Notes under the pieces: generated by a model | What the model was told of the DNA's origin: nothing | Database searches by the model: none | What the model saw: only the letters and a program-made list of their open reading frames with translations | Position numbers and translations under genes: made by a program | NCBI GenBank assembly: GCA_017499595.2 | Contig: CM039009.1 | Location: 620,001 to 684,000, forward strand | Length of the DNA stretch: 64,000 nucleotides | Origin: Psilocybe cubensis | Taxonomy: Eukaryota | Reading direction: 5' to 3' | Shown: positions 19,035-45,014 of the stretch, in pieces | Numbering within the stretch: the first letter of the stretch is position 1 | Layout of the letters: each line of letters opens with the position of its first letter

Positions 19035-20055
19035 TGGACTGGCGAGGCTCGATAGTTGAAACCTATAAATAGCACCTTGCAATTGGCGCGGATCAATGAT
19101 GCCGAGTTCACAATGCGAAAATTCAATCGGAGCCGAAGTTAAAAAATCACGTTCTCCGGAAGTTCCCTATGGAAAGCCAGAAGAGTGAGGTGCCCAGACA
19201 CAAACCAAACATCGTCCGGCAGGTATGCCGAGTGATCGATAGGCAACACACAATCCCGCTACGCCTGAGTGACTTCCGACACCCTGCACCGAGTCCATTT
19301 TCAAAATAAGTATACTCCGTTACATACTTTAGGTATTACCTGCCATGGGTAGGTAATTTGGATACACACATAATTATTACATTAGTACACAATATGACGC
19401 AAAATTTTACTAGTTATTGGGATGGCAGATAATTGCGTCGAAGCCGACTTTTCGAGTTATTTTTTGCCCTCTATTATTTAGTTATGGCCTGTAAGAAAGG
19501 GTTTGTGACGTTAGTGACAAATGTGGCTCCGAAAGTAACAGCGGTTCCGTAGCGGCACACGGAAAATATTCAAAAATGAAGCTTAGAGGTCGAATAGGCA
19601 AATTAAATTACTCTGTATTTCTGTATTCGACACCGGTTCTCTAGCTACTACATAGCTGCATTTATACTGTAAAAATAAGGTGTTCAAAGGAAGTAGACAA
19701 AGAAAGAGATACAAGAGGGTTAAATGGTAAATACATGAAGGTGGAGTACAACTGTACAAGTCAGTTTTAAGGGGAATAAAATAAAGAAATAGAAATAAAA
19801 AATAAAGAAAATGAGCTAAAGGACTGCGTGTACTGGGTGGACGGAGCAAAAGTGAAGTCCACAGAAAAGAAAATTATAGATAAGATAAAAGGAAGTGTGG
19901 GAAACAGTCCGGATTGTCACACCCACCATTGGTTTTCGCTCACATCAAGGCTTTCATCCTCATCTCAAGGTTTCAACGAAGTCGAGCTTACACCACTCAC
20001 CATGCTCTCTCACCTGCCCAGCCACTGTTGACATATAACTCTCTATCTACCCATG

Positions 20056-20127
20056 GGTCATGTAGCTCAGTGGTAGAGCATTGGCATATATAGCCGGGAG
20101 TCACTGGTTCAATTCCAGTCCTGACCG
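20056..20127 (+). ncRNA. tRNA-like element in TRIM LTR 1 (anticodon loop ATATATA; probably not a translational tRNA)
   Basis: GGTCATG/CCTGACC acceptor (6/7 paired), GCTC-AGTGGTA-GAGC, TTGGC/GCCGG, ACTGG-TTCAATT-CCAGT. A box TAGCTCAGTGG, B box GGTTCAATTCC, TTTT run just downstream. Confidence 0.85.
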
Positions 20128-20311
20128 TATCTTTTCCGTCATCACCTGATTGAGTGATTCTAACATGGTAGCAGCAACCTGTTGGCTTGCATTTGCCTCT
20201 AACCGGGCTTGCAAGGGCGGAAACCCTATGGGAGTCTGGACTTCTTAGTCACTACAGGCTAGATATTGAGTTCAGGGGGTGTGTTGACATATAACTCTCT
20301 ATCTACCCATG

Positions 20312-20383
20312 GGTCATGTAGCTCAGTGGTAGAGCATTGGCATATATAGCCGGGAGTCACTGGTTCAATTCCAGTCCTGACCG
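20312..20383 (+). ncRNA. tRNA-like element in TRIM LTR 2
   Basis: Identical to 20056-20127. Confidence 0.85.
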
Positions 20384-20441
20384 TATCTTTTCCGTCATCA
20401 CCGAAAACATGAATAACGGCTTCGTATTCCAACACACCCCC

Positions 20442-20855
20442 TCAACGCATCGCCTTGCTAACCGCTTTCGGATCGACGAGACCAAGGCGAGCAACTCCTT
20501 CAAGAAACTTGACACGTTGAAGTGGTTTCGTGAGGATGTCAGCCGGATTCTCTTTGCCGGGAATATGTAAAATGTGAAAAGATTTTGCTTCTATGTGAGA
20601 CCGAATGAAATGATATCTGATGTCAATGTGCTTGGCTTTGGAGTGTGATGAGTCGTTCTCGCATAGAGATTTGGCGCCTTCATTGTCAGTGGCGACGACC
20701 AAGGGGTTTGGACATGTGATGTGAAGATATGAGAGCGACGACCCTAACCATAGGCCCTCCTGAACTGTTCGCGTTAACGCAATATACTCGGACTCCGTCG
20801 AACTCGTCGATATGCATGTCTGTGTCTTCGACGACCAACTTAAAGGACCACCCGC
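20442..20855 (-). pseudogene. Copia RNase H C-terminal fragment of copy 1, separated from RT by the Gypsy insertion
   Basis: GGPLSWSSKTQ…STESEY…TDNEGA…KHIDIRYHFIR…NPADILTK, matching the end of ORF 37289-39649. Confidence 0.92.
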
Positions 20856-22477
20856 TATCATACCCCAATCCTGATTGGAGATGAGATGTTCATTTTGGAT
20901 CTACACACGACGCCCTCAACCCAAGCAGTCATTCTTTCCATAAGTCATCCACACATCTTATCTTATCAACACTTGTCACATGGGAGCCACGTTATTCCGG
21001 ATCATGTCACTTCGTCAGATCATCAAGGCTATGCGACGGATCAGTCAACCATCAAACTGCATAGCTTTCAACACTGCCTTGCATAGCCGGACTGTCAACT
21101 CTATTTTTATCAATTCAATGGTCTTACTCAGCGTCAGGCTGCGGATTACTCATTCCAACTTAGTTTTGGTTTGTCTTACTCATCCTTTTGTGTTTATTTA
21201 TATCTTTTCTATTGTCTGTTGCGCTTTTATTGTCTTTGTCTTACCAATCTTCTATGCTTTCTGACTCATCCTTGCTTCTTTTATCTAATCTGTATTACCA
21301 TTCACCTTCGTCATACACTTCTTTCTTACTCATCCTATTCATTTCTTATCTGTCGTCGTGTCGATATTGACATGTCTTATTGTTCTTGCTTATTGTTACA
21401 CTTGCGTAGCCTCATTCTTGACACTTTGTACAGTATATGACTCGGTTTTCAGTAGCTTAGATTGGTATTTCGTTCACGTAGCTTTTAGTATAAAAGCTGT
21501 AGTAGAATTACACGAAATGACAGGAAAGTTACACCCAGTCCACACTTTCTTCAAAGCAAGTCAATTTTCATCCAAGTCAAGTCAATTTCAAGTCAATCCA
21601 CATCGATTCATTTCAATTCCAAGCTCAAGTTCAAGCCAAGCCCAAACCCAAGTCCAATTCAGTCATCAGTTCCACCCTCCGTCGAGACCAAGTTTACTTC
21701 CATTCATCCGAAGTCATCTCGCTTTCCATTAAGAGAGGATTTCATCCGAGACCAGTCATCCTCCTCATCCAACGCCTCTTCTTCTCAGCGTTGAATATCC
21801 AACTTCTATCCAGACCTCCAGTACTTCCCTACTTCCTCTCCTCCATTCAATCCGTCACCGCTCCTACTCTTTCTACACCTTCCAACCATCGCCGTTAGAA
21901 GTGTATTCAAGACATCCTTTCCCTCCGTCAACTCATCTGGAGCGATTTCATTCGAGACAGACTTAGTCTTTCATCCTCGATTCAGTCAATACTCCTATAG
22001 CTTCATTCCAAGCTTCAGAAAGATTGTCAATTTAAAGACACTTTCACCATTCTTCAAGATTCAGCCCGTTAACGACATTCCGACTCCTAGTCATCTTCTT
22101 ATCTCCCCTCGGAACATTCCCCACTCACTTCAGACAACCCCTCTAAGATTCACATTTATTGATTTCTCATACGCAATCTACGCATCTTCTTCACGCTTTC
22201 CATATACACCCGCCATCCAATTCCACGGTTCCATCCCATTTTCGGAAGGCTTATTTACTATCGTACCCAGACGACCCGGTTATCCTCTTCTTACTATTTC
22301 GCTTTCATTACCCTTCACAATCCACACCATCCTAATCTACTTAAATCCTAGGCAGCGTCCTCCCTTAAGAAACTTAGGAGAAGGTTTCGTCCTATCCAGT
22401 CTGGACCACTCTTTCCCTGGGGTTTGTGTTTGTTGGATTACATATAGTTTATAACCAATCACAAACTTCGATCTTCA
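20856..22477 (+). repeat. Gypsy 5' LTR (TA…CA)
   Basis: Direct repeat of 30702-32323 (offset 9846) with identical ORF-track translations. Candidate TATA box TATAAAAG at 21489. Confidence 0.95.
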
Positions 22478-22610
22478 TCTGGAGCCCACCGCGAGGGAGG
22501 GTTAATTAGGATTTTGTATTAGGAACACAGCAATCTACCACTTTATCACTTCCATTCCATCCATTTCGACTCTTTTTCTTTACAGGTTACTTCGCTTTGC
22601 TGGTCTATTC

Positions 22611-22643
22611 TCTAGGCAACTCTAGGCAACAATTCTAGGCAAC
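22611..22643 (+). repeat. Three copies of TCTAGGCAAC in the Gypsy leader
   Basis: TCTAGGCAAC TCTAGGCAAC AAT TCTAGGCAAC between the PBS and gag. Confidence 0.8.
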
Positions 22644-22672
22644 ACTTTCTGACTCTGTAACTGGTTTACGCT

Positions 22673-25600
22673 ATGACTGATTCTGGCAATCCGCTTCCAT
22701 CCTCTACTCCCACTATGGCTACTACCATCATCCAACGTACTCCTGTCGATATGCCTGTTCCTAAATCTAGTGCTGCTCCAAAATTCACTGGATCTTACGT
22801 CGACGTCAAGAACTTCTTGGATCACTGCGACCGCATTTTTGATCAGTACAATGTCACTCTCGACGATGACAAAGTACGATACATGGTTCAATGCTGCAAC
22901 CAAGAGAGCAGAGAAATCATTGAAGGTTTACCCAGCCACCATGCCAAGCAATGGGAACGACTCAAGACTGATATGCTCAAGATCTTTGATCATGCTAGGA
23001 CAACGCAGAAGTTCACGTTGAGTACTCTTCGTGCTTACGCTTTCCAACACTCCAATCTTTCTATGCGCTCTCTCGACGACTTCCGCGAGTATCAGAAGCA
23101 ATACATTCGCATCGCTGGTTGGCTTCTCAACAACAACAAGATATCCAAGACGGAATACAATCAATACTTCTGGCTAGGAATCAATGAATCCCTCCGACCT
23201 GCGCTCGAAAGCAAGATCATGGTCTTTAATCCTCATATCGATCTCTCCTCACCTTTTTCCATTGAAGACGTCACCAAGGCAGTTGAAATCATCTTTAAAC
23301 GAGACCGCTTTGACGTTGGAATCTTTGACAATCCTTCTGCACGCCCCTTCACGTCTCTTATTCCTCCAAAGGATTCGTATCCAGAGCGCTCATCAGTCTT
23401 TGACGAGATCAAGAAGTACTTACAGGAGATGTTTCCTAACATTGAGACACGCGATGCCCGTGAACGTCCATACAATCCCCCGGAAGAGACCAAGCGCATT
23501 TTTCAGGATCTAGACAAGGAAGAGAAGCAAGCGCACAAGGACGACGAAGTGGAGAACTTGATCAAGCAGATGTCGAAGCTCACCATCCATGATTCTTCGT
23601 ACGCCATTTATTATCTTCGCGCCATCAAGTTGGAACCCGCTCTTGCTAACATGCTCATTGCTCCGGCCATTATGAATCCAAGTGCACAGCCAGCTCAGCC
23701 AGTCCCAATCGCAAGTCAGTCAGCACCTCCAGCACCACGAGCACCACGTCAGTCCGCATCCGAGATCATCTGCTATGGTTGCCACCAACAAGGCCATGGA
23801 ATCAACAACTGCCCGACGCTCATTGATCTTACAAACCGCAAGCTCATCTCCAGAGACAGTAGCAATCGAGTTGTCTTCCCTGATGGATCCCGCATTATTC
23901 GCCAGAATGGAGAGTCAATCGCACAAGCAGTCCTTCGTCAACAACAGCCTCCTCCTCCTCCTCCTCCTCAAGTTGCTACCACAAGCATAGCCGTATCCGA
24001 AGCATATTATGGTCAGATGTTCAAGAACTACAGAGCCATGGTTGCAGAAGAAGAAGAGGACGACATTGGAACCTGGGATGGAGAAGACGAGTTTGAGTTT
24101 ACGCTGGCAGGTCCTGGTAATCGAATCCCAACTGAAAAGCGAACACGTGCTGCACGCAAACAGGTCATGGACGCTGTGGTACCTCCGGAACCCACGTATC
24201 TGAAAGGGAAGCGAGCGGAAATGAGTAAAGCTAAGGATTCTTCTCAGATCCCATCTATTCTTAAACGTCCGGCTAACTCTGGATTGCCGAACAACGTGCC
24301 TAGCTCCACTTCCATTCAACCTGTCCCAATCCCGTCAATTAATCAACCTTCTGCCGAAATGAATCCATCAATTCCTGTCAAACAAGCTCAACCCAATGTC
24401 CCGATTAGGGCAAATCCAACGGAACATCCCGGGACTGCCCAACGACACGAGGTTTTTGATCCGGCCGATGATGATCAAATCATGGAAGATGTCACTCCTA
24501 GTCTAGAACGAGGCAAATCAGTTACTAAGCCACGTGCAGCCCCTCAGAAACGTGTCTCTGATATATCCCAAACTGTCGACACTATGGCCATTCTCAGACG
24601 ATGCCTTAATCAACCCGTTAATGCGACGTTCGGCGAGTTACTTGGAGTTTCAAAGGACCTTAGGACCCTTCTTATCAACAGCATCAAAGGCAAGACCCTT
24701 ACTGTCGACGAATTCAAAGCTTCATTGGCAAACGGCAACTTAAAGCTTTCCGATAAGGAAGTTCTAGACATCATTCGCAGTGCCGAAAAGGACGTACCTG
24801 TTCAATACATGCACGAGACCAATTCAGTCGAATCCCTTCGCGCTCACGAGCCCCTTCTTCGAATCACATTAATGTGTAATGGTCACGAACTCAATGCCTT
24901 GATTGACAGTGGATCTACGCAGAACATTCTAAGTGAACAGGCTTGGAAGAAGATTGTCAAGTTGCCGATGGACAGCCGGAATACTATTGTTATGGTCGAT
25001 ATTCATGGCGGCAAATCCCACATGCTTGGATTCGTTGGAAATGTTCAACTTGATATTGGTACAGTCAGGACGCGTGCTCATTGCTATGTATCCGACAAAG
25101 TCCAGTTTGATATACTCTTGGGACGTCCATGGACCCGTGACAACTATGTGGACATTCTAGAACGACCCGAAGGGACCTTCATTGCCTTCTATGACGTCAA
25201 AGATCCTACACGTGAGCAGAAATTCCTTGTGACACCTGATACTCAGCACGACCGGCGTTACTTCACGGATACCATTTACGACAAGACCCCCCACACAATG
25301 TTAGCACACAACGACCTCTCCTTAGCTAATCCGGATGCCGAAGAAGGTGAAATTGAAGAAGATCTAGAACCCGGTGAATTATTGGACGACCTTTGCTATC
25401 CATCACCTACCCCTTCCATGATCGAGTTATCTATCCTTACTAGGCAACAATCTCTGAATCGGGACGAATCTGCTAACCCAAATGAGGACTTATCCACTTC
25501 ACAAGATGCACCCTCTTTCTCTGACTACAACTGCGAACATGACTCGACTCAGGACTCCTCTCACGGTCTCTACGCTTCCGATTATGACTCAATGTATCAA

Positions 25601-26557
25601 GATGACTCGGGAACTTCTCAATTCAATGCGACAGCCCATTATGGTCATATTTCCACACCACCTTACGATTCCACACATGAGGCCCCACAAATAGAACAGC
25701 CACCATCACCATCTGTCAATCCGTCCATCAAATCCCACACTTCAGACAATAACGACCCACATGAAGAAGAACCAGCTGACGACGATCCAGAAATGGAACA
25801 ATTGAGCTCACCCGAAGTAGAAGCTATTCAATTCTCTTCTGACAATACTCACCTTACGGCTATGGGAATGCTCAACCCCCACTTGCGCTTTGAAGACTGG
25901 ATTCTATACAACGCCACTTATTCTTCTCCTACTCGTGTTGTTTCTGACCGAACAGGAACGGCCTTTGTCCATTATGTTTATCCGCAGAGAGACAGCCATA
26001 TAAACTTGACGACGACTCCAACTATTCTACACTTCAGTCGCACTGGTATCTCGTCTCAATCTAACCACTCTGCTTCAGTCAGTGCCTATCCAATGGGCCA
26101 ACGTCACTCAGCATCCTGGACTCATTTTATTCCCCAATCCATTCGCTCTCAAAACGCTTCTCCTATTCCCCAACCTCATTCCCGAAGTTCTGCTCTTCCA
26201 GAGACGCCTCTTTCGATTATGATTCACCAGGAAACACGTGTATCATCGACGGTCACCGCAAATGTAGACGAGCATCATCGAGGCCCGAAAGCTTTGGTAC
26301 ATCCTCTGCGAGTAGCCCACGACAGTCCGAAGGAGCCATTAAACGAGGATGAAGAAGAGCTACGAATCGCCCAAAATGGCAAAGAGGTCGACCACAATTC
26401 TTCCCTTTTACCTCTTCCCATAACCAGCACAATGCACGAATCGCGAGCTTCAAATATGGATGATGGAAACGAATGGTACTATCAGTATGGAGAAGAAAGT
26501 CCCTTTGGTATCGACAACACGGAAGAACATCCCTTGGACGCCAACACATTGTACTGA
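22673..26557 (+). CDS. gag: Gypsy Gag-protease polyprotein with long acidic/low-complexity tail
   Basis: APKFTG gag motif, CCHC knuckle CYGCHQQGHGINNC, aspartic protease ALIDSGS and ILLGRPW. Confidence 0.9.
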   Translation: MTDSGNPLPSSTPTMATTIIQRTPVDMPVPKSSAAPKFTGSYVDVKNFLDHCDRIFDQYNVTLDDDKVRYMVQCCNQESREIIEGLPSHHAKQWERLKTDMLKIFDHARTTQKFTLSTLRAYAFQHSNLSMRSLDDFREYQKQYIRIAGWLLNNNKISKTEYNQYFWLGINESLRPALESKIMVFNPHIDLSSPFSIEDVTKAVEIIFKRDRFDVGIFDNPSARPFTSLIPPKDSYPERSSVFDEIKKYLQEMFPNIETRDARERPYNPPEETKRIFQDLDKEEKQAHKDDEVENLIKQMSKLTIHDSSYAIYYLRAIKLEPALANMLIAPAIMNPSAQPAQPVPIASQSAPPAPRAPRQSASEIICYGCHQQGHGINNCPTLIDLTNRKLISRDSSNRVVFPDGSRIIRQNGESIAQAVLRQQQPPPPPPPQVATTSIAVSEAYYGQMFKNYRAMVAEEEEDDIGTWDGEDEFEFTLAGPGNRIPTEKRTRAARKQVMDAVVPPEPTYLKGKRAEMSKAKDSSQIPSILKRPANSGLPNNVPSSTSIQPVPIPSINQPSAEMNPSIPVKQAQPNVPIRANPTEHPGTAQRHEVFDPADDDQIMEDVTPSLERGKSVTKPRAAPQKRVSDISQTVDTMAILRRCLNQPVNATFGELLGVSKDLRTLLINSIKGKTLTVDEFKASLANGNLKLSDKEVLDIIRSAEKDVPVQYMHETNSVESLRAHEPLLRITLMCNGHELNALIDSGSTQNILSEQAWKKIVKLPMDSRNTIVMVDIHGGKSHMLGFVGNVQLDIGTVRTRAHCYVSDKVQFDILLGRPWTRDNYVDILERPEGTFIAFYDVKDPTREQKFLVTPDTQHDRRYFTDTIYDKTPHTMLAHNDLSLANPDAEEGEIEEDLEPGELLDDLCYPSPTPSMIELSILTRQQSLNRDESANPNEDLSTSQDAPSFSDYNCEHDSTQDSSHGLYASDYDSMYQDDSGTSQFNATAHYGHISTPPYDSTHEAPQIEQPPSPSVNPSIKSHTSDNNDPHEEEPADDDPEMEQLSSPEVEAIQFSSDNTHLTAMGMLNPHLRFEDWILYNATYSSPTRVVSDRTGTAFVHYVYPQRDSHINLTTTPTILHFSRTGISSQSNHSASVSAYPMGQRHSASWTHFIPQSIRSQNASPIPQPHSRSSALPETPLSIMIHQETRVSSTVTANVDEHHRGPKALVHPLRVAHDSPKEPLNEDEEELRIAQNGKEVDHNSSLLPLPITSTMHESRASNMDDGNEWYYQYGEESPFGIDNTEEHPLDANTLY

Positions 26558-26572
26558 CTATCTGGACGGTGC

Positions 26573-30643: not shown

Positions 30644-30701
30644 TCTATCCCCCCCTTCCTTCCGCAACCGGGGACGGTTGATTTCTCAAGTTTGGGACGG
30701 A

Positions 30702-34313: not shown

Positions 34314-36599
34314 CTACTCCTCCGGAACGTGGACAAAGGCGCGGCATCCCCATACACGGAGATGGGATAGATTGGGAGGTCGATGATACATGTTTTCAAA
34401 TGGGGTGATACCATCTTCATCCGTGCTTGTTATGTTGAGAAGGTATGACACGGTGAGAGCAGCTTCGCCCCAGTAGGTCAATGGAAGTTGAGCAGTGGTA
34501 ATCATTGCGAGCATTCGACCCTGAATGGTTCGCATGAAGCGTTCGATTTCCCCGTTCATCCAGTGTTCACGGGCCGGCGTGACCTCTTGTTCAATTCCCA
34601 CCTCTAACAAGTAGGCAGCAAAACTACCCTTCCACTCCGGACCTCCATCACAGCGGAAACGCTTAATCTTGAAACCCGTGCGCGTCTCCCAGCGCGCTTG
34701 CACAATCTTGAAGGCCTCTAGCATGGTGTCGGCAGTCTTGTCAGCAGTAAGTTGAACGTTATTGACTTTCATTCCAGCACACCGGAAGGCAACAAAATAT
34801 TCTTTGTGATGTGGTGTCTGCACCGGAAAAGGACCACACGTGTCAGCTACAACAAGTTCGAGAGGTTGATAGGCGCGCTGGCCAAGTGAGCTTGGCGGAT
34901 GCGGGGTAGCGGTGTGCTTGGCGACAATACACGGTTCGCATTTTATGTTGTCGTCTTTAACATCGGCTCTCATTACCCTCTTGACCAACATACGCGTAGC
35001 CTGCTCTCCAGGATGACCAAGACGAAGGTGATGCAAGTACATGGATTCCTGAACTTTCACAAACATCGCTCGTTCACCTGTAGAGTTGTAAGATTGTGGT
35101 ACGAAGACGGCATTGTCGACTGCGAATAGGCCATGAATCAACGAAGCGGAAGCAAATGCCACTCCCCGTTTGGAAAGATGAATTCCGTGACCAGGTTGGA
35201 AATTGCAACCGATCTCTGCAATGTATAGACGACTAACAGAGAGTAGGTTAACAGCCGCTGAAGGAGCATGAAGACAGTTATTCAATTTGAGCCTGATGGT
35301 CTTGCCGTTGTAGGTGACATTAAGGATACAGATTCCTCCACCTTGAGTTCGGAGAGTCCCAAGATTCGCCGTCGTGACATTCCTGGCGTCACTTTCGGAG
35401 TAGGTGTGGAACAAGTGACGAGATTTAATGATATGAGAGGTGGCACCAGAGTCGAGTAAAATTGAGGTTGATAGGAAGGATTTCGTATTGACGGATGCAA
35501 CGAGGTTATCGTGAGTGCTATTCTGCTCGTCTCCGATTTCTTCAATTAATGCACAGGAAATTTCGCCGCTGGTATCAAGATTAGTGGAATCGACTGCTAT
35601 TGAAGCCATTTCAGCCTTTTTCGCGGCGGCAGCTGCACGATATGCCGGTCCCTGGCCCTCCATGCCTCCACCCTTGGCCCAACAGTGCTCTTTATCGTGC
35701 GAACGATTCTTGCAATTGGTGCATCGCACTCCGTTTGGGTTGTTGGCGTGTTTGGCAATGGGCCGGTTATCATTGGAGAAGTTTGAATATTCTGAACCGG
35801 GAGGATGGCGCTTAGAACCTGCTTCTGCTTCTAAACGCTGGCATTCGATGGTTAGGCGCGATATTATCCTTTCAAGAGCAGTATTTGGAGCAGAAGGTGT
35901 CCTTCCTTCATCAACTGCGGCTTTATCCCTGTCTAACGTGTCTTGATATAGCTGTATCATCAATTGTTTAAAGTTGGGCCATACACCTGAAGACGGAAGA
36001 CCTCGAATGATATGGTGAATGATGTCGCCCTCTGGATAGTCAACACCCATGTCCTTCAGGCGCTCCCTGCCAGTACGAAACTCTCCAAGGTACTTCTCTA
36101 TTTCAGTGTAGTCCTTGAGTTTAATTGACGCGAGTTTCTCCTTGATAGCAAACTGAGCGTTGATATCGACTCGGGCATATCTTGTCATGATTTGGGCCCA
36201 CAACATTCGTGCGGTAACGTCTTCCCCTACGCTTAAGTTCGACTTGACTAATGCTGACACTTTTCGGGTGATCAGCGTTTTAGCGCTATCGTCGTCGCTC
36301 CACCACTTCCTATAGGCAGTGATAACCTCGTCGGACGCGTCGTTTGCTGGTTCAGCGGGTTTGGGTGACACAGGGTACCTTGCGGTTCGGCTTTCTGATC
36401 CCTCGATGTGACCATAGACGCCACAGTCTTTTAGGATGTTCCTCATGTCATCTCTCCACGCGATGAAATTAGACGTTCCTTCAAGGTTGACAATGTGGTC
36501 GACTTTCGCGTTTGCAGGTGTGATCTTATTGTTCATTGTGAAGTTGTTGATGGTGGTGTGAACAGCGTTCGGAATTTCTCCTTCTACGGATGATGACAT
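34314..36599 (-). CDS. gag-pol: Copia copy 1 Gag-protease-integrase ORF ending at an in-frame TAG
   Basis: CTNCKNRSHDKEHC knuckle, LLDSGATSH protease, HLRLGH…CEPC zinc motif, and ADTCG / RCDGG / NGEIER DDE core. Confidence 0.93.
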   Translation of the reverse strand: MSSSVEGEIPNAVHTTINNFTMNNKITPANAKVDHIVNLEGTSNFIAWRDDMRNILKDCGVYGHIEGSESRTARYPVSPKPAEPANDASDEVITAYRKWWSDDDSAKTLITRKVSALVKSNLSVGEDVTARMLWAQIMTRYARVDINAQFAIKEKLASIKLKDYTEIEKYLGEFRTGRERLKDMGVDYPEGDIIHHIIRGLPSSGVWPNFKQLMIQLYQDTLDRDKAAVDEGRTPSAPNTALERIISRLTIECQRLEAEAGSKRHPPGSEYSNFSNDNRPIAKHANNPNGVRCTNCKNRSHDKEHCWAKGGGMEGQGPAYRAAAAAKKAEMASIAVDSTNLDTSGEISCALIEEIGDEQNSTHDNLVASVNTKSFLSTSILLDSGATSHIIKSRHLFHTYSESDARNVTTANLGTLRTQGGGICILNVTYNGKTIRLKLNNCLHAPSAAVNLLSVSRLYIAEIGCNFQPGHGIHLSKRGVAFASASLIHGLFAVDNAVFVPQSYNSTGERAMFVKVQESMYLHHLRLGHPGEQATRMLVKRVMRADVKDDNIKCEPCIVAKHTATPHPPSSLGQRAYQPLELVVADTCGPFPVQTPHHKEYFVAFRCAGMKVNNVQLTADKTADTMLEAFKIVQARWETRTGFKIKRFRCDGGPEWKGSFAAYLLEVGIEQEVTPAREHWMNGEIERFMRTIQGRMLAMITTAQLPLTYWGEAALTVSYLLNITSTDEDGITPFENMYHRPPNLSHLRVWGCRAFVHVPEE

Positions 36600-36868
36600 T
36601 TTGATATGATTTTGTCAAGTGAGATGTATGTGAGATTTGACAATGAGTAGAACTGGTGCTCTCTAAGGAAACACTATGCGAGCCTGAATGCTGAGTTCCG
36701 TCTGTCTTCGTTTAGTTCAGGCGTCCTTCTACGGATGATGACATTTTGATATGATTTTGTCAAGTGAGATGTATGTGAGATTTGACAATGAGTAGAACTG
36801 GTGCTCTCTAAGGAAACACTATGCGAGCCTGAATGCTGAGTTCCGTCTGTCTTCGTTTAGTTCAGGCG
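36579..36868 (-). repeat. Perfect 2 x 145-bp tandem duplication of the Copia leader and gag start (copy 1)
   Basis: 36579-36723 equals 36724-36868. Confidence 0.95.
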
Positions 36869-36886
36869 CGACCGGGGCCCATAACC

Positions 36887-37281
36887 TGAAGAAAACTGAA
36901 ATATACGGTTAATCTCAGCCGAAAGAAACAAAGGGCTAAATATATTGAACCTGAAATATACGGTTAATCTACAAGACGAGTTAGTCATGTTTTATGAACA
37001 ACAAAGACTGGATTTACCTCAGCCGAAAGAAACAAAGGGCTGAGGTAACAGGAATGAGATGCTACGGTATATGTGAGGATTGAATGGATGAAGAAGTTGA
37101 TGAGAAAAATAAGGAAGGTGATGCGTTGTACGTTGAAGGAAAGAAAGCTGCTGAACTCAGCAGTTGAACAGGGGCTATCGGAGCGACTGGTCCGATTACG
37201 AATAAGGAAGTTCTAGGTGTAAAAAAGGAAATGGTGAATGCACGAATCGGAAAACATGAATAACGGCTTCGTATTCCAACA
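36887..37281 (-). repeat. Complete 395-bp Copia LTR shared by the two tandem copies
   Basis: Minus strand TGTTGG…TTCTTCA, preceded by PPT GAGGGGGTG and followed by PBS GGTTATGGGCCCC. Confidence 0.93.
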
Positions 37282-37288
37282 CACCCCC

Positions 37289-39688
37289 TCAACGCATCGC
37301 CTTGCTAACCGCTTTCGGATTGACGAGACCAAGGCGAGCAACTCCTTCAAGAAACTTGACACGTTGAAGTGGTTTCGTGAGGATGTCAGCCGGATTCTCT
37401 TTGCCGGGAATATGTAAAATGTGAAAAGATTTTGCTTCTATGTGAGACCGAATGAAATGATATCTGATGTCAATGTGCTTGGCTTTGGAGTGTGATGAGT
37501 CGTTCTCGCATAGAGATTTGGCGCCTTCATTGTCAGTGGCGACGACCAAGGGGTTTGGACATGTGATGTGAAGATATGAGAGCGACGACCCTAACCATAG
37601 GCCCTCCTGAACTGTTCGCGTTAACGCAATATACTCGGACTCCGTCGAACTCGTCGATATGCATGTCTGTGTCTTCGACGACCAACTTAAAGGACCACCC
37701 GCCACCATCCACACAAACCCTGAGACCGAAGCTCGCGATTCTTTGTTGCCTGCCCAATCGGCGTCAGAGTAACCTTGAAGAGGTTGCGATGCAGCCTCTC
37801 CTCCGTAGTGGAGACGATAATTGCGTGTCCCGCTGAGGTATCGGAGAACCCGTTTGGCTGTGGCAAAGTGCCGAGGTTGAGGGTTTGATGCGTGCTGCGA
37901 AAGTAATAGGACAGCGATGGAGATGTCGGGACGGGAGTGTCGTTGAATAAAAAGGAGGGATCCGATGAGGCGTTGAAAGGTAGGCTTGATGTTTGGTATT
38001 TCGGGGAATGTGTCGGCTTCCTGTCCAAAGATGTTATTGGCGTCGAGTGGGGTGGAAACCGGGCTGCAGTTGAGGAGTCCATATTCGTCTAGGATGCTCT
38101 CAATGTAGGATGTTTGATGAATCCAGATTTCTCGAGTAGACGTGTTTCTCTCGTATTGCACCCCGAGGTATGAGCGAAGAGGGCCGAGGTCCTTGATGCC
38201 AAATCTCTTATTGACTTTGGATTTAGCGTGGTCAAGAAATGCTTTTGAATTAGATGCTCCGAGTCCATCGTCGACGTGAATGCACAACCAACAGTGCACC
38301 TGTTCCCCATTCCAAAGTCCCTCAAAGACAAAGGTAGCGTGGTCTTTCTCTGATCGTTTAAACCCTATGTCCTGCAGTGTTGAGCGGATCAGGATGTACC
38401 ATACACTACTCGCCTGTTTTAAGCCGTAGAGTGACTTCTTCAGTCTCCAAATGCCTTTCGGGAAAGGAGAGGTGTAGCCCGGAGGACACCTCATGTAAAT
38501 AACCTCCGATAAATCTCCCCACAGGAATGCTCTCGTGGCGTCGAAGCATTCTATGTGCCACCCATTGAGGGTCGCATGCACAACGATTGCTCTGATGCTG
38601 ACCGATTTAGATACGGGCGCGAATGTTTCGTGATAATCGATGAGGTATTTTTGGGAGAATCCCTGAGCAACGAGCCTTGCCTTATAGATTAGATTTCCCT
38701 GATCGTCAATTTTGAATTCAAAAACCCATCGACATCCAATCGTATGTGTCCCATCTACGAAGCACTCGTCCGTGTACACATTCATTGACCTGAGCATATC
38801 CAGCTCCTTTTCGACGACTTTTTGCCATTGGTCTGCATCAGGACGCTGCATTGCTTCAGCGTAGTTGGCCGGCGGGATTTTGAGATCGTAATTGGGAGAG
38901 TGAGGATTTCGTTTCTGCTCACTCCTGATGGAGAGTAAAGTTGCCTCAAAAAAGGCTTCCTTATCTCGTGCCAGGTAGTCTTCGACGTCCAGTGAGACTA
39001 GTGATACGTCTTCGGAGTTATCGTGGGGATGATGTTCCAGCATTCCGACGGAGCACAAGGAGATGAAAGGATTTTCATCGTCACCCCCTTGCTCAGTGGA
39101 AGGCTGAACAGTTGACGAACGTTCTGCACTTGTGGCTCTACGTGAGGCTATGATGCTGTCGCTTTTCGCCTTTTCTGCTTCGCGGAATTGATTGTATAAA
39201 ATTCCTCTTGAGGTTGGATGTCGTTCTCTTGAGGAAGAGCGCGGTGGCGGTAAGACACGATGAGCGATAGGAGTTGGAGGTTGTTGAGGAGGATGGGAAG
39301 GGGGAGTAGATGGAATAACATCTATATCTACGGAAGAAATAGAAGATGAAGAGGGAACAGAAGAAGAAGAAGGTTCAAGAAGTTGGGATGAGTCCAAGTC
39401 AGAAGGTGTAGATACAAGATTTGGAACGGATGTTGTGACTGGGGATGAATAAGAAGAAGATGAAGTAGGAGAGGAAGAAGATAAAACATCGGAGAAGAAG
39501 GGTAAGGATGAGTAGTCTATGGGAATAGAAGAATTATTGTTAGAAAGAAAGGGCATGTTTTCGTCAAACATAGCATTAGAAGAATGAAAGAAGTGTCCTG
39601 TTTCAAGATGTCGGAACCTGTACCCTTTTCCGCCAGGCGGGTAACCCATAAATCTGCACTGTACAGATTTTGCGCCGAGCTTTGATTG
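37289..39688 (-). CDS. pol: Copia copy 2 IN C-terminus, RT and RNase H (in-frame continuation after TAG 39689-39691)
   Basis: Open frame QSKLGAKSVQCRFMGYP…HVDD…YSDADWA…KHIDIRYH…ADILTK. Confidence 0.92.
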   Translation of the reverse strand, partial: QSKLGAKSVQCRFMGYPPGGKGYRFRHLETGHFFHSSNAMFDENMPFLSNNNSSIPIDYSSLPFFSDVLSSSSPTSSSSYSSPVTTSVPNLVSTPSDLDSSQLLEPSSSSVPSSSSISSVDIDVIPSTPPSHPPQQPPTPIAHRVLPPPRSSSRERHPTSRGILYNQFREAEKAKSDSIIASRRATSAERSSTVQPSTEQGGDDENPFISLCSVGMLEHHPHDNSEDVSLVSLDVEDYLARDKEAFFEATLLSIRSEQKRNPHSPNYDLKIPPANYAEAMQRPDADQWQKVVEKELDMLRSMNVYTDECFVDGTHTIGCRWVFEFKIDDQGNLIYKARLVAQGFSQKYLIDYHETFAPVSKSVSIRAIVVHATLNGWHIECFDATRAFLWGDLSEVIYMRCPPGYTSPFPKGIWRLKKSLYGLKQASSVWYILIRSTLQDIGFKRSEKDHATFVFEGLWNGEQVHCWLCIHVDDGLGASNSKAFLDHAKSKVNKRFGIKDLGPLRSYLGVQYERNTSTREIWIHQTSYIESILDEYGLLNCSPVSTPLDANNIFGQEADTFPEIPNIKPTFQRLIGSLLFIQRHSRPDISIAVLLLSQHASNPQPRHFATAKRVLRYLSGTRNYRLHYGGEAASQPLQGYSDADWAGNKESRASVSGFVWMVAGGPLSWSSKTQTCISTSSTESEYIALTRTVQEGLWLGSSLSYLHITCPNPLVVATDNEGAKSLCENDSSHSKAKHIDIRYHFIRSHIEAKSFHILHIPGKENPADILTKPLQRVKFLEGVARLGLVNPKAVSKAMR

Positions 39689-41974
39689 CTACTCCTCCGG
39701 AACGTGGACAAAGGCGCGGCATCCCCATACACGGAGATGGGATAGATTGGGAGGTCGATGATACATGTTTTCAAATGGGGTGATACCATCTTCATCCGTG
39801 CTTGTTATGTTGAGAAGGTATGACACGGTGAGAGCAGCTTCGCCCCAGTAGGTCAATGGAAGTTGAGCAGTGGTAATCATTGCGAGCATTCGACCCTGAA
39901 TGGTTCGCATGAAGCGTTCGATTTCCCCGTTCATCCAGTGTTCACGGGCCGGCGTGACCTCTTGTTCAATTCCCACCTCTAACAAGTAGGCAGCAAAACT
40001 ACCCTTCCACTCCGGACCTCCATCACAGCGGAAACGCTTAATCTTGAAACCCGTGCGCGTCTCCCAGCGCGCTTGCACAATCTTGAAGGCCTCTAGCATG
40101 GTGTCGGCAGTCTTGTCAGCAGTAAGTTGAACGTTATTGACTTTCATTCCAGCACACCGGAAGGCAACAAAATATTCTTTGTGATGTGGTGTCTGCACCG
40201 GAAAAGGACCACACGTGTCAGCTACAACAAGTTCGAGAGGTTGATAGGCGCGCTGGCCAAGTGAGCTTGGCGGATGCGGGGTAGCGGTGTGCTTGGCGAC
40301 AATACACGGTTCGCATTTTATGTTGTCGTCTTTAACATCGGCTCTCATTACCCTCTTGACCAACATACGCGTAGCCTGCTCTCCAGGATGACCAAGACGA
40401 AGGTGATGCAAGTACATGGATTCCTGAACTTTCACAAACATCGCTCGTTCACCTGTAGAGTTGTAAGATTGTGGTACGAAGACGGCATTGTCGACTGCGA
40501 ATAGGCCATGAATCAACGAAGCGGAAGCAAATGCCACTCCCCGTTTGGAAAGATGAATTCCGTGACCAGGTTGGAAATTGCAACCGATCTCTGCAATGTA
40601 TAGACGACTAACAGAGAGTAGGTTAACAGCCGCTGAAGGAGCATGAAGACAGTTATTCAATTTGAGCCTGATGGTCTTGCCGTTGTAGGTGACATTAAGG
40701 ATACAGATTCCTCCACCTTGAGTTCGGAGAGTCCCAAGATTCGCCGTCGTGACATTCCTGGCGTCACTTTCGGAGTAGGTGTGGAACAAGTGACGAGATT
40801 TAATGATATGAGAGGTGGCACCAGAGTCGAGTAAAATTGAGGTTGATAGGAAGGATTTCGTATTGACGGATGCAACGAGGTTATCGTGAGTGCTATTCTG
40901 CTCGTCTCCGATTTCTTCAATTAATGCACAGGAAATTTCGCCGCTGGTATCAAGATTAGTGGAATCGACTGCTATTGAAGCCATTTCAGCCTTTTTCGCG
41001 GCGGCAGCTGCACGATATGCCGGTCCCTGGCCCTCCATGCCTCCACCCTTGGCCCAACAGTGCTCTTTATCGTGCGAACGATTCTTGCAATTGGTGCATC
41101 GCACTCCGTTTGGGTTGTTGGCGTGTTTGGCAATGGGCCGGTTATCATTGGAGAAGTTTGAATATTCTGAACCGGGAGGATGGCGCTTAGAACCTGCTTC
41201 TGCTTCTAAACGCTGGCATTCGATGGTTAGGCGCGATATTATCCTTTCAAGAGCAGTATTTGGAGCAGAAGGTGTCCTTCCTTCATCAACTGCGGCTTTA
41301 TCCCTGTCTAACGTGTCTTGATATAGCTGTATCATCAATTGTTTAAAGTTGGGCCATACACCTGAAGACGGAAGACCTCGAATGATATGGTGAATGATGT
41401 CGCCCTCTGGATAGTCAACACCCATGTCCTTCAGGCGCTCCCTGCCAGTACGAAACTCTCCAAGGTACTTCTCTATTTCAGTGTAGTCCTTGAGTTTAAT
41501 TGACGCGAGTTTCTCCTTGATAGCAAACTGAGCGTTGATATCGACTCGGGCATATCTTGTCATGATTTGGGCCCACAACATTCGTGCGGTAACGTCTTCC
41601 CCTACGCTTAAGTTCGACTTGACTAATGCTGACACTTTTCGGGTGATCAGCGTTTTAGCGCTATCGTCGTCGCTCCACCACTTCCTATAGGCAGTGATAA
41701 CCTCGTCGGACGCGTCGTTTGCTGGTTCAGCGGGTTTGGGTGACACAGGGTACCTTGCGGTTCGGCTTTCTGATCCCTCGATGTGACCATAGACGCCACA
41801 GTCTTTTAGGATGTTCCTCATGTCATCTCTCCACGCGATGAAATTAGACGTTCCTTCAAGGTTGACAATGTGGTCGACTTTCGCGTTTGCAGGTGTGATC
41901 TTATTGTTCATTGTGAAGTTGTTGATGGTGGTGTGAACAGCGTTCGGAATTTCTCCTTCTACGGATGATGACAT
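39689..41974 (-). CDS. gag-pol: Copia copy 2 Gag-protease-integrase ORF
   Basis: Translation identical to 34314-36599. Confidence 0.93.
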   Translation of the reverse strand: MSSSVEGEIPNAVHTTINNFTMNNKITPANAKVDHIVNLEGTSNFIAWRDDMRNILKDCGVYGHIEGSESRTARYPVSPKPAEPANDASDEVITAYRKWWSDDDSAKTLITRKVSALVKSNLSVGEDVTARMLWAQIMTRYARVDINAQFAIKEKLASIKLKDYTEIEKYLGEFRTGRERLKDMGVDYPEGDIIHHIIRGLPSSGVWPNFKQLMIQLYQDTLDRDKAAVDEGRTPSAPNTALERIISRLTIECQRLEAEAGSKRHPPGSEYSNFSNDNRPIAKHANNPNGVRCTNCKNRSHDKEHCWAKGGGMEGQGPAYRAAAAAKKAEMASIAVDSTNLDTSGEISCALIEEIGDEQNSTHDNLVASVNTKSFLSTSILLDSGATSHIIKSRHLFHTYSESDARNVTTANLGTLRTQGGGICILNVTYNGKTIRLKLNNCLHAPSAAVNLLSVSRLYIAEIGCNFQPGHGIHLSKRGVAFASASLIHGLFAVDNAVFVPQSYNSTGERAMFVKVQESMYLHHLRLGHPGEQATRMLVKRVMRADVKDDNIKCEPCIVAKHTATPHPPSSLGQRAYQPLELVVADTCGPFPVQTPHHKEYFVAFRCAGMKVNNVQLTADKTADTMLEAFKIVQARWETRTGFKIKRFRCDGGPEWKGSFAAYLLEVGIEQEVTPAREHWMNGEIERFMRTIQGRMLAMITTAQLPLTYWGEAALTVSYLLNITSTDEDGITPFENMYHRPPNLSHLRVWGCRAFVHVPEE

Positions 41975-42243
41975 TTTGATATGATTTTGTCAAGTGAGAT
42001 GTATGTGAGATTTGACAATGAGTAGAACTGGTGCTCTCTAAGGAAACACTATGCGAGCCTGAATGCTGAGTTCCGTCTGTCTTCGTTTAGTTCAGGCGTC
42101 CTTCTACGGATGATGACATTTTGATATGATTTTGTCAAGTGAGATGTATGTGAGATTTGACAATGAGTAGAACTGGTGCTCTCTAAGGAAACACTATGCG
42201 AGCCTGAATGCTGAGTTCCGTCTGTCTTCGTTTAGTTCAGGCG
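41954..42243 (-). repeat. 2 x 145-bp leader duplication (copy 2)
   Basis: Same as 36579-36868 at offset 5375. Confidence 0.93.
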
Positions 42244-42480
42244 CGACCGGGGCCCATAACCTGAAGAAAACTGAAATATACGGTTAATCTCAGCCGAAAG
42301 AAACAAAGGGCTAAATATATTTCCATTCTAACATGGTAGCAGCAAACCTGTTGGCTTGCATTTGCCTCTAACCGGGCTTGCAAGGGCGGAAACCCTATGG
42401 GAGTCTGGACTTCTTAGTCACTACAGGCTAGATATCGAGTTCAGGGGGTGTGTTGACATATAACTCTCTATCTACCCATG

Positions 42481-42552
42481 GGTCATGTAGCTCAGTGGTA
42501 GAGCATTGGCATATATAGCCGGGAGTCACTGGTTCAATTCCAGTCCTGACCG
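42481..42552 (+). ncRNA. tRNA-like element in TRIM LTR 3
   Basis: Identical to 20056-20127. Confidence 0.85.
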
Positions 42553-43689
42553 TATCTTTTCCGTCATCACCTGATTGAGTGATTCTAACAGCCACCTCTA
42601 TCTTCTCTCATATCCATCACATCCATTGCCCGTGACCAACCGCCCGCTGCGCTAAGCGCATACCAAAGTCTGGTTTGTGTATGTAAGCACTCTGGCTCTT
42701 TTTAAAAGCAGCTTACCTGTCCTAGTTGACTTCCTTTCGTATCATCAATGCGCTAGCCAAGGCCCAAATACCGCAGTCATCTTAATGATGCAACAATATT
42801 CAATGTATTGCCTTCTTACAGGGAAGAACTAAATGATAGACGGCAAAAAATAACATACCTAAGTATGTAACAGAATATACTTATTTGTATAGTGGACTCG
42901 GTGCACGGTGCCAGAAGTCATTCAGGCGTAGCGGGATTGTGTGTTGCCTATCGATCACTCGGCATACCTGCCGGACGATGTTTGGTTTGTGTCTGGGCAC
43001 CTCGCTCTTCCGGCTTTCCATAGTTCCCAGGGTTCGTATTGCTCGCTTCATGCCTTTTGCCACCTGCAAGTGGTCCTCCTAATCGATGGTTCTGGCGAGA
43101 TCCTTCAAATAACAGACATTTGCTCTGTTTTCTGTAGGTACAGTTTGACACGATTCTGTGGCACTGTCCAAACGCACCCAAGAGTTGCCACTTCCACCCG
43201 ATCACTCCAGAATTGGTTAGAGGATTGGACTTATGCCCTGCCAACTTTGCAACCGACAGAGTAGAGGAATCTAAGGCTGTTGTAGTCCAGGTTGTGTTCC
43301 TGTCTGTTTATAACTGGCAATTTCCTACCCTATCAAATACGCGTCCCTATTCGCCTTGGCGGTCTTATTCCGACTTGTCAATTCTAATTCTGGAGCCTCA
43401 CGGTGGTATGTATTCACAAAATGACTGTGGATTGAGGGTTCAAGCGCTCATATCTCACTCGGCTCACTATCTACACATCATTGACTAGGCTTTTGGATTT
43501 GGAACTCGTATTGTGCTGCGATCATTGTAGGAGAGTATCGATTTTATATTGTCGTTCGTGCCCGACCCTTCCTTACCTTCCTAACACAACTCTATTCATC
43601 GGCTAAAGGGATAAAAAGGGTGTTCACGGTGCTGCAATTGAAGACTGTCTAGGCCCTAGCGGCTGGTGATATTCAATATGGCGAGTAAG

Positions 43690-44600: not shown

Positions 44601-45014
44601 GTAACAAAACCCCTTTCATGTGTCGTCCAACCTGGCCTGTCAAGAAATGTCGACATCCACCCCAAACGTGGGTCTGTTAAATCGGCCGCGCGGAATTCCT
44701 CGCCTTCTTTGCTCTTTTCTGCATCATCATCTCGGTCTCTGTCGATCTACGTTCAGCTTGTCTACGCTCGAGGCCTCCCTTGCGCGATTTATTACCCGGA
44801 ATACCGCAACGTGTCTGGGGAAACGCCCAAACTCCAAAAGGTCGCGTGTAAGATTGCGAATTCGGGCTTCTCTCTGGTAATTATTTTGCATCGTGTCCGA
44901 TGTCTTGACTTACACCTATCTGCCGAGTTCTTATCAATCATTCTGATTTTAGGTATACATTTGGACCAGGTGGTGTGTTTATTAGCCCATTGAGGAGCTC
45001 GAAGGTCTCCCACC

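Follow-up and report, generated by a model that had tools for sequence, protein, structure and literature searches.

A Helenus-type TRIM with a tRNA-like unit in each LTR, broken by a nested Copia tandem, in Psilocybe cubensis

Anatomy of the locus

The window, a stretch of 64,000 nucleotides from Psilocybe cubensis (assembly GCA_017499595.2, contig CM039009.1, positions 620,001 to 684,000 of the forward strand), contains a three-LTR TRIM that is arranged as LTR, internal part, LTR, internal part, LTR and that, by sequence inspection and a self-BLAST of the window, spans 20026-42590. Its features, with position 1 as the first letter of the window, are the following.

20021..20025, no strand: left copy of the target-site duplication (TSD), GCCAC; reads from host-repeat paralogues carry GCCAC once and then the right flank
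20026..20165, plus strand: LTR1, 140 bp, TGTTG...AACA, 100% identical to 42451-42590
20034..20038, plus strand: TATAA, 18-22 nt upstream of tRNA-like unit 1
20056..20127, plus strand: tRNA-like unit 1, with A box TAGCTCAGTGG, B box GGTTCAATTCC and loop AUAUAUA
20132..20135, plus strand: TTTT after tRNA-like unit 1, the sole run of at least four T in the putative 334-nt LTR-to-LTR RNA
20166..20281, plus strand: internal part 1, 116 bp, with PBS TGGTAGCAGC at 20166-20175 and PPT AGGGGGTG at 20274-20281
20282..20402, plus strand: middle LTR, its first 121 nt, with tRNA-like unit 2 at 20312-20383
42322..42324, no strand: filler of 3 bases at the Copia/Helenus junction
42325..42333, plus strand: middle LTR, last 9 nt; 10 nt are deleted between the two LTR pieces
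42334..42450, plus strand: internal part 2, 117 bp, with PBS and PPT as in internal part 1
42451..42590, plus strand: LTR3, 140 bp, with tRNA-like unit 3 at 42481-42552
42591..42595, no strand: right copy of the TSD, GCCAC

The basic unit of the element is 396 bp long. Its LTRs have TG..CA ends, and both internal parts, which differ from one another by one 1-nt indel and one substitution, begin with TGGTAGCAGC and end with AGGGGGTG, in each case directly adjoining the LTRs. No open reading frame of at least 150 aa (and none of at least 200 aa) is listed inside either LTR-internal unit. The structural reading of the initial annotation, in which every LTR of a miniature LTR retrotransposon holds a complete tRNA-like unit of Pol III type and the element has a PBS, a PPT and a 5-bp TSD, is supported; the spacing it had given between the LTRs, 116-117 bp from PBS to PPT, is that of the two internal parts, and the 5-bp TSD it had proposed, GCCAC, is present on both sides of the element and occurs singly in reads from empty sites. 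It had also counted three LTRs of 140 bp, which is correct for LTR1 and LTR3. The middle LTR is incomplete, consisting of 121 nt and 9 nt from which the 10 nt TGATTGAGTG are missing, and is split by a nest of 21.9 kb that the annotation had passed over.

The nested Copia and Gypsy elements

The nest is itself composite, with a Gypsy element lying inside a Copia tandem.

20403..42321, minus strand: nested Copia tandem, no TSD
20403-20434: Copia tandem, 32 nt of LTR
20435-20855 and 32324-36886: Copia tandem, internal copy B
36887-37281: Copia tandem, central LTR, 395 bp
37282-42261: Copia tandem, internal copy A
42262-42321: Copia tandem, last 60 nt of LTR
20856..32323, plus strand: Gypsy inside Copia copy B, with 1622-bp LTRs that are 100% identical and a 4-bp TSD, CCGC

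The junctions of the Copia nest have no TSD, the outer LTRs are truncated, and there are a 10-bp deletion of the target and three filler bases; judged from these junctions, the insertion looks like cDNA end-joining and not like integrase action. In yeast, Ty1 cDNA is captured at chromosome breaks, and the nested Copia resembles such events in its junction features, a likeness that concerns the nest and not the TRIM. The Copia tandem, having been end-joined, would have broken the middle LTR after the TRIM had inserted, with the Gypsy element then inserting into the Copia.

Copies, empty sites and mobility of the TRIM

Copy numbers were taken from raw WGS reads of a related strain (X13 and X14) and not from the window's own assembly. 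Single-copy read depth is about 36 in X13 and about 35 in X14, and adding the two LTR bins gives 273 and 297, respectively, which amounts to about eight LTR copies; for the internal part, arithmetic on mixed depth bins yields about 5-6 copies. The TRIM inserted into one member of a repeat family whose elements have inverted ends, and the corresponding empty sites are paralogous. Among the read ends listed, 139 reads in X13 and 156 in X14 leave the left flank at 20019. The repetition of GCCAC around the TRIM is not a matter of chance, because these empty-site reads show GCCAC once and then the right flank, a 5-nt indel aside, with an agreement of 0.97. Among the read ends listed for X14, 132 reads pass the LTR end at 20165 into sequence other than the PBS, and since their agreement is only 0.48, several different 3' flanks are represented.

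The eight or so LTR copies, the other 3' flanks and the paralogous empty sites therefore identify the TRIM as a real, low-copy and recently mobile family, interspersed and multi-copy by depth and by its varied flanks, the GCCAC duplication having been seen at this locus. Scans of metagenomes gave no match for 27 consecutive nt taken from the tRNA-like unit, nor any for a gapped D-arm/T-arm pattern. The contigs of one sequencing run that is guessed to be RNA (X10) gave a single 48-nt match, at 19335-19382, and none on the TRIM, which is uninformative on expression.

The tRNA-like unit

Three of the four ARAGORN calls in the window are tRNA-Tyr(ata) at 20056-20127, 20312-20383 and 42481-42552, that is, the three tRNA-like units, each of which scores 53.2 bits against Rfam RF00005 (gathering score 29; E 1.3e-08; model positions 1-71). 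All four Rfam matches in the window at E up to 1 are to tRNA, and the genuine, intron-bearing tRNA at 2632-2722 scores 51 bits as against the 53.2 of the tRNA-like unit. Within its 72 nt the unit has 20 of 21 cloverleaf pairs in standard form, the exception being U6.C66 in the acceptor; by inspection its A and B boxes match, TAGCT..TGG and GGTTC both being present. The TATAA of the LTR lies at -22 to -18, nearer to the unit than the TATAAT of the genuine tRNA, which is at -30 to -25; this shorter distance speaks against the Pol III promoter role proposed below. What had been noted initially is thereby borne out for the identical 72-nt cloverleaf with its A and B boxes, the upstream TATAA and the downstream TTTT, as well as for stems that pair save for one acceptor mismatch. 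The false Tyr(ATA) calls that had been foreseen do occur, and units of this kind should be masked when tRNA genes are annotated in such genomes.

Working tRNAs have a pyrimidine at position 32, U33 and a purine at position 37. The anticodon loop here, AUAUAUA, has A32, U33 and U37, and was thus correctly described as off-pattern at 32 and 37; this loop and the unpaired U6.C66 in the acceptor depart from the canonical form of a functional tRNA, and it is unlikely that the unit works as one. The cloverleaf is also not strictly kept in all copies, because G>A at 20379, carried by 35 of 85 reads in X13 and 36 of 71 in X14 among the variants listed, breaks the acceptor pair C4-G68. A further G>A in that list, at 20383, falls on the discriminator (36/80 reads in X13, 37/71 in X14). 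The minimum free energy (MFE) structure of the single strand differs from the cloverleaf (-22.8 versus -20.0 kcal/mol; z -1.46), a mismatch that carries little weight because genuine tRNAs often have a single-sequence MFE structure other than the cloverleaf. The likeness of the unit to the genuine tRNA of the window (2632-2722) is confined to the 17-nt D-arm and points to no particular parent tRNA isotype.

Transcription and reverse transcription

The name Helenus was given in 2024 to TRIMs with tRNA-derived sequence in their LTRs (Kojima, 2024, Biology 13:119, PMC10886601), and the initial annotation had applied it correctly. The element is very probably a Helenus-type TRIM, that is, an LTR retrotransposon of the non-autonomous kind, 396 bp long per unit, in three-LTR tandem form and with a 5-bp duplication, whose middle LTR was broken by a Copia tandem containing a Gypsy element, and which would combine Copia-type copying, priming by initiator tRNA-Met and a putative Pol III promoter with a non-working tRNA. 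Beyond the anatomy, the likeness to tRNA, the TSD together with the empty sites that correspond to it and the presence of further copies in different surroundings, all of which are shown, a replication cycle can be proposed.

As judged from the sequence, transcription most likely proceeds by Pol III from a putative internal promoter, a role that would fall to the tRNA-like unit, which would not itself be a working tRNA; the tRNA mimicry and the insulation from silencing that the initial annotation had also proposed would be further putative functions. Transcription would begin either at the 5' LTR's unit or shortly ahead of it, pass the weak TTTT there and stop at the TTTT of the next LTR, to yield an RNA of about 334 nt whose repeated ends (R) would be the tRNA-like unit and for which U3 would be only about 30 nt. 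In this 334-nt LTR-to-LTR RNA the only run of at least four T directly follows the tRNA-like unit, the lack of further T4 runs in about 250 nt not being significant alone, as about one would be expected by chance on our estimate. Neither AATAAA nor ATTAAA occurs in the LTR.

The RNA would then be copied by the proteins of a Copia-type element, with initiator tRNA-Met serving as primer through its 3' end at TGGTAGCAGC. The PBS shares its first 9 nt with the 5' terminus of a reverse primer published for the human initiator tRNA (tRNAi-Met). Two observations point to a Copia-type partner. The PPT and LTR start of the TRIM match those of the nested Copia at 18 of 20 positions, a score that only 1 shuffle in 1000 attained and only 1 of the 284 tiles of the window, the tile in question being the genuine tRNA; and the TSD of the TRIM is 5 bp long as against 4 bp for the nested Gypsy. 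The nested Copia was considered as the direct autonomous partner and rejected. Its PBS is GGTTATGGGCCCC, a type that we take to pair with the anticodon arm of tRNA-iMet, unlike the TGGTAGCAGC of the TRIM, and because of this difference it is probably not the partner; TGGTAGCAGC with at most one mismatch is absent after its LTR, and its 3' end is present in about two copies by depth in the X13/X14 reads, which is this locus alone. Self-priming by the 3' end of the tRNA-like sequence of the LTR (..CCTGACCG) was also rejected, this end being by inspection not complementary to TGGTAGCAGC. Other Helenus families likewise have no complementarity for self-priming (Kojima, 2024).

Alternative explanations

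It is possible, although doubtful, that the tRNA-like unit persists as an inert remnant, say of a tRNA-derived SINE or a tRNA gene that entered an ancestral LTR, and that the RNA is made by Pol II or by read-through from a neighbour while the A and B boxes lie idle. The loop AUAUAUA and the acceptor mismatch would then represent decay as a tRNA, G>A at acceptor G68 and at the discriminator is found in about 40-50% of reads among the variants listed, the TATAA close to where the LTR begins might serve Pol II, and a SINE insertion has been proposed as the origin of Helenus (Kojima, 2024). Such decay is hard to square with stems in which all pairs but one, and both boxes, are intact and with a score at the level of the genuine tRNA. 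With some 30 nt of U3 there is hardly any space for a Pol II promoter, and the LTR lacks both AATAAA and ATTAAA. That the LTR units are working tRNA genes which retrotransposition has multiplied and which contribute to the cell's tRNAs, for instance with an unusual AUA-anticodon tRNA, is very improbable: they do have a complete cloverleaf, 53.2 bits and TATA-like and T-run signals, and among fungal Helenus families there are 15 with the potential to encode tRNA-His or tRNA-Thr (Kojima, 2024), but an AUA anticodon is not known to be used for Tyr, A32 and U37 violate the pyrimidine/purine rule, the acceptor contains a U.C mismatch with variants breaking another of its pairs, and a functional tRNA has been judged unlikely for Helenus in general (Kojima, 2024).

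An origin without transposition, in which a cluster of tRNA pseudogenes was duplicated locally and resembles LTRs by chance, is scarcely credible. The three copies in the window do all lie at one locus and the family is small; however, chance resemblance would have to extend to TG..CA ends, adjoining PBS and PPT and a 5-bp flanking duplication, and local duplication is already contradicted by paralogous empty sites with a single GCCAC, by about eight LTR copies and by LTR ends that meet several flanks. A further reading, which we consider improbable, takes the tRNA-like units to be putative live Pol III genes, bound by TFIIIC/TFIIIB, that would make the LTR fragile or a landing spot, with the tandems arising by strand transfer and the LTR seeding nests. 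In yeast, replication forks pause at active tRNA genes, and the break that captured the Copia cDNA, 20 bp downstream of tRNA-like unit 2, would fit such pausing. The TRIM and the nested Copia are both three-LTR tandems here, and the two internal parts of the TRIM carry alleles each of which recurs in other copies among the variants listed; together, the shared tandem form and the recurring alleles hint that the tandems form while co-packaged RNAs are being reverse transcribed, by transfer of strands from one to another, and not by later unequal crossing-over. If this were true, a Helenus LTR would both promote Pol III synthesis of the element's genomic RNA and give rise to transposon nests in mushroom genomes.

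Comparison with known systems

The preferred reading of the locus as a Helenus-type TRIM can be set beside the published description of the class. Helenus elements are defined as TRIMs of less than 1000 bp that lack coding capacity and whose two LTRs enclose a PBS and a PPT, and in which box A (TRGCY, YGG) and box B (GGTTC) are kept; lengths of 311-1263 bp are reported, and the elements are miscalled as tRNA genes (Kojima, 2024). Rust fungi commonly contain them, and they are also on record from Agaricus and Coprinopsis, the fungal members having 5-bp TSDs and Copia-type mobilisation, and tandem arrays are reported for a fish family (Kojima, 2024). The present element shows every Helenus feature tested and belongs to the class by structural definition only: it has a 396-bp unit with two short LTRs of 140 bp, adjoining PBS and PPT and no ORF of at least 150 aa; RF00005 matches at 53.2 bits in all three units, with TAGCT..TGG and GGTTC; and GCCAC on both sides, found once in empty-site reads. 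It is also Helenus-like in a length within the reported range, in features that point to a Copia partner, in its tRNA miscalls and in its tandem form, whereas the loop AUAUAUA, the very small family (about eight LTRs) and the three-LTR form broken by a nest are particular to this copy.

The novelty that the initial annotation had implied is unsupported, because the class, the fungal 5-bp TSD and the dependence on Copia are published, and no new question is opened since the class and its likely mechanism are already in print. In literature listings for Pol III-transcribed TRIMs (TRIMp3) and for Psilocybe in connection with retrotransposons and tRNA, no report of this family was found, and the host genus is absent from the text and Table 1 of Kojima (2024), whose Table S1 may list further species. 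The locus provides a clean and apparently very young example of Helenus/TRIMp3, in which LTRs are identical, the cloverleaf is intact and the TSD has its counterpart in empty sites, and a copy this intact would be convenient for a direct test of Pol III transcription of such LTRs.

Cassandra, the only TRIMp3 to have been validated, is likewise a TRIM whose LTR bears a unit derived from a Pol III gene, and its transcripts are described as beginning in the 5' LTR's unit and ending in that of the 3' LTR (summarised in Kojima, 2024). It differs in that its unit is 5S rRNA and its hosts are plants, whereas the unit described here is tRNA-like and, at E up to 1, the window has no Rfam match other than tRNA. 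The tRNA-derived SINEs (SINE2) are similar in being short and non-autonomous, with a tRNA-like head, A and B boxes and a borrowed reverse transcriptase; in contrast, SINEs are without LTRs, PBS and PPT and are copied, through a 3' tail recognised by a LINE, by non-LTR (LINE) machinery, while the TRIM has all three of these LTR-retrotransposon features.

Structure of the element

The initial annotation's reading of 20026-42590 as a miniature LTR retrotransposon with a tRNA-like unit in its LTRs proved right, and the layout below was derived from sequence reading, a self-BLAST of the window and a coordinate check.

Layout of the Helenus-type element (source in brackets)
20021-20025, left TSD, GCCAC (sequence)
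20026-20165, LTR1, 140 bp, TGTTG...AACA (sequence, self-BLAST)
20166-20281, internal part 1, 116 bp, starting TGGTAGCAGC and ending AGGGGGTG (sequence)
20282-20402, second (middle) LTR, initial 121 nt (sequence, self-BLAST)
20403-42321, block of other transposons, 21.9 kb
42322-42324, filler, 3 bases (coordinate check)
42325-42333, second (middle) LTR, final 9 nt
42334-42450, internal part 2, 117 bp
42451-42590, LTR3
42591-42595, right TSD, GCCAC

The annotated coordinates and features hold, save that the middle LTR, instead of being a whole 140-bp copy, is in two pieces and has lost 10 nt (TGATTGAGTG). In the self-BLAST, LTR1, LTR3 and the 121-nt middle-LTR piece are 100% identical, and the two internal parts are one substitution and one 1-nt indel apart.

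ARAGORN predicts four tRNA genes in the window, three of which are the LTR units.

tRNA-like units, each called tRNA-Tyr(ata)
20056-20127, unit 1
20312-20383, unit 2
42481-42552, unit 3

Infernal-type scoring, which the initial annotation had proposed, gives each of the three units 53.2 bits over the full Rfam tRNA model (E 1.3e-08; gathering score 29); the single non-standard pair lies in the acceptor stem. The cloverleaf already drawn, with paired stems, a single acceptor mismatch and an ATATATA loop, is borne out: 20 of its 21 pairs are standard, U6.C66 being the mismatch, and the loop reads AUAUAUA. Folded on its own, the unit has a minimum-energy structure other than the cloverleaf (-22.8 versus -20.0 kcal/mol; z -1.46). 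The unit carries a box A (TAGCTCAGTGG) and a box B (GGTTCAATTCC), both of which we take to agree with the usual consensus, together with TATAA at -22 to -18 and a TTTT that begins 5 nt past its end.

At a looser Rfam threshold the window yields only one further RNA match, a tRNA gene (2632-2722, minus strand; 51 bits) that contains an intron; the E-value threshold recovers it, whereas a run at the gathering threshold using fast filters missed it. The LTR unit thus scores on a par with a real tRNA gene of the same genome. This genuine-looking gene has AGT in its anticodon region, which would probably make it a Thr tRNA; it is preceded by TATAAT at -30 to -25 and followed by T4 and T5 runs.

Insertion and further copies

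Two raw whole-genome read runs of a related strain (X13 and X14), contigs of the best-matching dataset (X1) and a presumed RNA run (X10) were mapped onto 18027-21026. X13 and X14 carry a different organism code from the X1 contigs, and the copy figures refer to the X13/X14 strain.

Read depth and copy estimates
18027-18326 and 19027-19126, single-copy bins: about 36 in X13, about 35 in X14; 1 copy
20027-20126 and 20327-20426, LTR bins: 181 + 92 in X13, 227 + 70 in X14; about 8 copies
Internal part of the element, computed from mixed bins: about 5-6 copies
19927-20026, flank directly left of the element: 215 in X13, 240 in X14; about 6-7 copies

At 20019, 139 reads of X13 and 156 of X14 depart from the window sequence and continue with a single GCCAC and then the right-flank sequence of the window save for a 5-nt indel (agreement 0.97). 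Such reads represent empty paralogous sites of the repeat that received the element, and since these carry GCCAC only once, the element is a true insertion that duplicated it. Among the loose read ends listed, 132 reads of X14 pass the final LTR base (20165) into non-PBS sequence with an agreement of only 0.48, which indicates several different downstream flanks. The structure of the element, its insertion signature and the existence of further copies are all demonstrated. Sub-types within the family are indicated by read variants, among those listed the following four.

Read variants
20267 T>C: 100/133 in X13, 94/112 in X14
Extra A after 20175: 67/156 in X13, 54/140 in X14
20379 G>A: 35/85 in X13, 36/71 in X14
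20383 G>A: 36/80 in X13, 37/71 in X14

The first two are the states present in internal part 2; 20379 G>A disrupts the C4-G68 acceptor pair and 20383 G>A alters the discriminator base.

The whole locus is enclosed by 170-bp inverted repeats (19167-19336 and 42855-43023; 92% alike) with TTCC on both outer sides. With the nest removed, this pair would form the terminal inverted repeats of an element of roughly 1.3 kb, which is the host that received the tRNA-bearing TRIM; read depth suggests about 6-15 copies of it. Many reads break at 19167/19168. A separate repeat at 18327-19026 reaches about 4-6 times the single-copy depth, and its reads show several internal deletion joints.

The nested transposons

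The block at 20403-42321 holds a Copia element in tandem form on the minus strand, with Pfam gag, pre-integrase, RVT_2 and related domains.

Layout of the nested Copia (minus strand)
42321..42262, last 60 nt of the LTR
42261..37282, internal copy A, between the 60-nt LTR piece and the central LTR
37281..36887, complete LTR, 395 bp, TG..CA, followed by GGTTATGGGCCCC (PBS)
36886..32324 and 20855..20435, internal copy B, between the central and third LTRs
20434..20403, third LTR, first 32 nt only

GGTTATGGGCCCC is a PBS of the kind complementary to the anticodon arm of tRNA-iMet. The insertion has no TSD, its target lacks 10 nt and 3 filler bases are present; it looks like an end-joined, chewed-back tandem (aberrant) cDNA rather than the product of integrase. 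Copies A and B are 99.8-99.9% identical in the self-BLAST and share an in-frame TAG within the SH3-like domain after the integrase. X13 depth suggests that the Copia 3' end is confined to this locus, at about 2 copies.

Within the Copia LTR (36896-37041, minus) a 42-nt segment is present twice, about 55 nt apart, uninterrupted at 36937..36896 and split at 37041..36951 by a 49-nt GT...AG stretch with CTAAC resembling a small fungal intron; one LTR thus holds both a 'spliced' and an 'unspliced' copy. In the leader, a 145-nt unit is tandemly duplicated (36579-36868 and 41954-42243), and because each unit has an ATG and the same first codons, the gag start is duplicated.

A full-length Gypsy element (20856-32323, plus strand; TSD CCGC) lies inside Copia copy B. 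Its 1622-bp LTRs are 100% identical, and one in-frame TGA separates the protease from the RT/RNase H/integrase parts. At about 42-44 times single-copy, the depth of its LTR indicates a family that is abundant and probably active. Every LTR pair at the locus is identical, which argues that the whole stack is young.

Other neighbours

At 47481-49070, about 5 kb from the element, sits an exon of the gene for BRF1, one of the subunits of TFIIIB, a Pol III factor (95% identity to the Psilocybe cubensis protein, 81% to that of P. cyanescens; the named matches, among those listed, are all Agaricomycetes). These identities place the source of the window among Agaricales fungi close to Psilocybe. Its nearness to a Pol III-type element is almost certainly coincidence. 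The window also holds an HMG-box ORF (44994-45980), HAMP-repeat histidine kinase fragments (51749-52567 and 58643-59491) and 80-nt repeats at 58123-59238.

Proposed mechanism

Support for the scheme proposed here falls in the order Copia mobilisation, initiator tRNA priming, Pol III genomic RNA and, last, the view that the unit does not function as a tRNA. A Copia-type element would mobilise the TRIM in trans, as suggested by the 5-bp TSD (that of the Gypsy here is 4 bp) and by a match to the nested Copia across the PPT and the initial 5 nt of the LTR. This match covers 18 of 20 positions, a score also reached in 1 of 1000 shuffles and in 1 of 284 window tiles, that tile being the genuine tRNA.

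Reverse transcription would be primed by the 3' end of initiator tRNA-Met. The A1:U72 end implied by the PBS is typical of initiator tRNAs. Over its initial 9 nt the PBS is identical to the 5' end of a reverse primer published for human tRNAi-Met.

To judge from sequence, Pol III may produce the genomic RNA, which would run from the unit of one LTR to the TTTT behind the unit of the next, about 334 nt; with the promoter lying within the transcribed unit, U3 could be as short as about 30 nt. Apart from that TTTT, no run of at least four T occurs along the predicted RNA, and the LTR contains neither AATAAA nor ATTAAA. Four-T runs are weak stops in yeasts, so read-through in the 5' LTR would be possible. 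From A32 and U37 in the loop, the acceptor mismatch and the pair-breaking variants in some copies, we infer that the unit does not work as a tRNA. A Pol III promoter role, as hypothesised for related elements (PMC10886601), is a plausible function for it.

Relation to Helenus

The initial annotation's hint that tRNA-bearing TRIMs might be a known class was apt: Helenus has been described as TRIMs under 1000 bp with tRNA-derived sequence in their LTRs (Kojima, 2024; PMC10886601). In literature listings on TRIMp3 and on Psilocybe retrotransposons and tRNA, no report of this family was found, and one 2026 paper, in the part available, mentions Helenus only in passing. Helenus elements range from 311 to 1263 bp, have conserved A and B boxes and PBSs common to Copia elements, and in fungi are flanked by 5-bp TSDs; some families are small, with fewer than 10 LTRs, and the class gives rise to massive false tRNA predictions (PMC10886601). 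The same work puts forward the hypothesis that the tRNA-like part acts as a Pol III promoter, which defines the proposed 'TRIMp3' class. The element described here shows every defining feature of Helenus that was examined and is assigned to it by structural definition.
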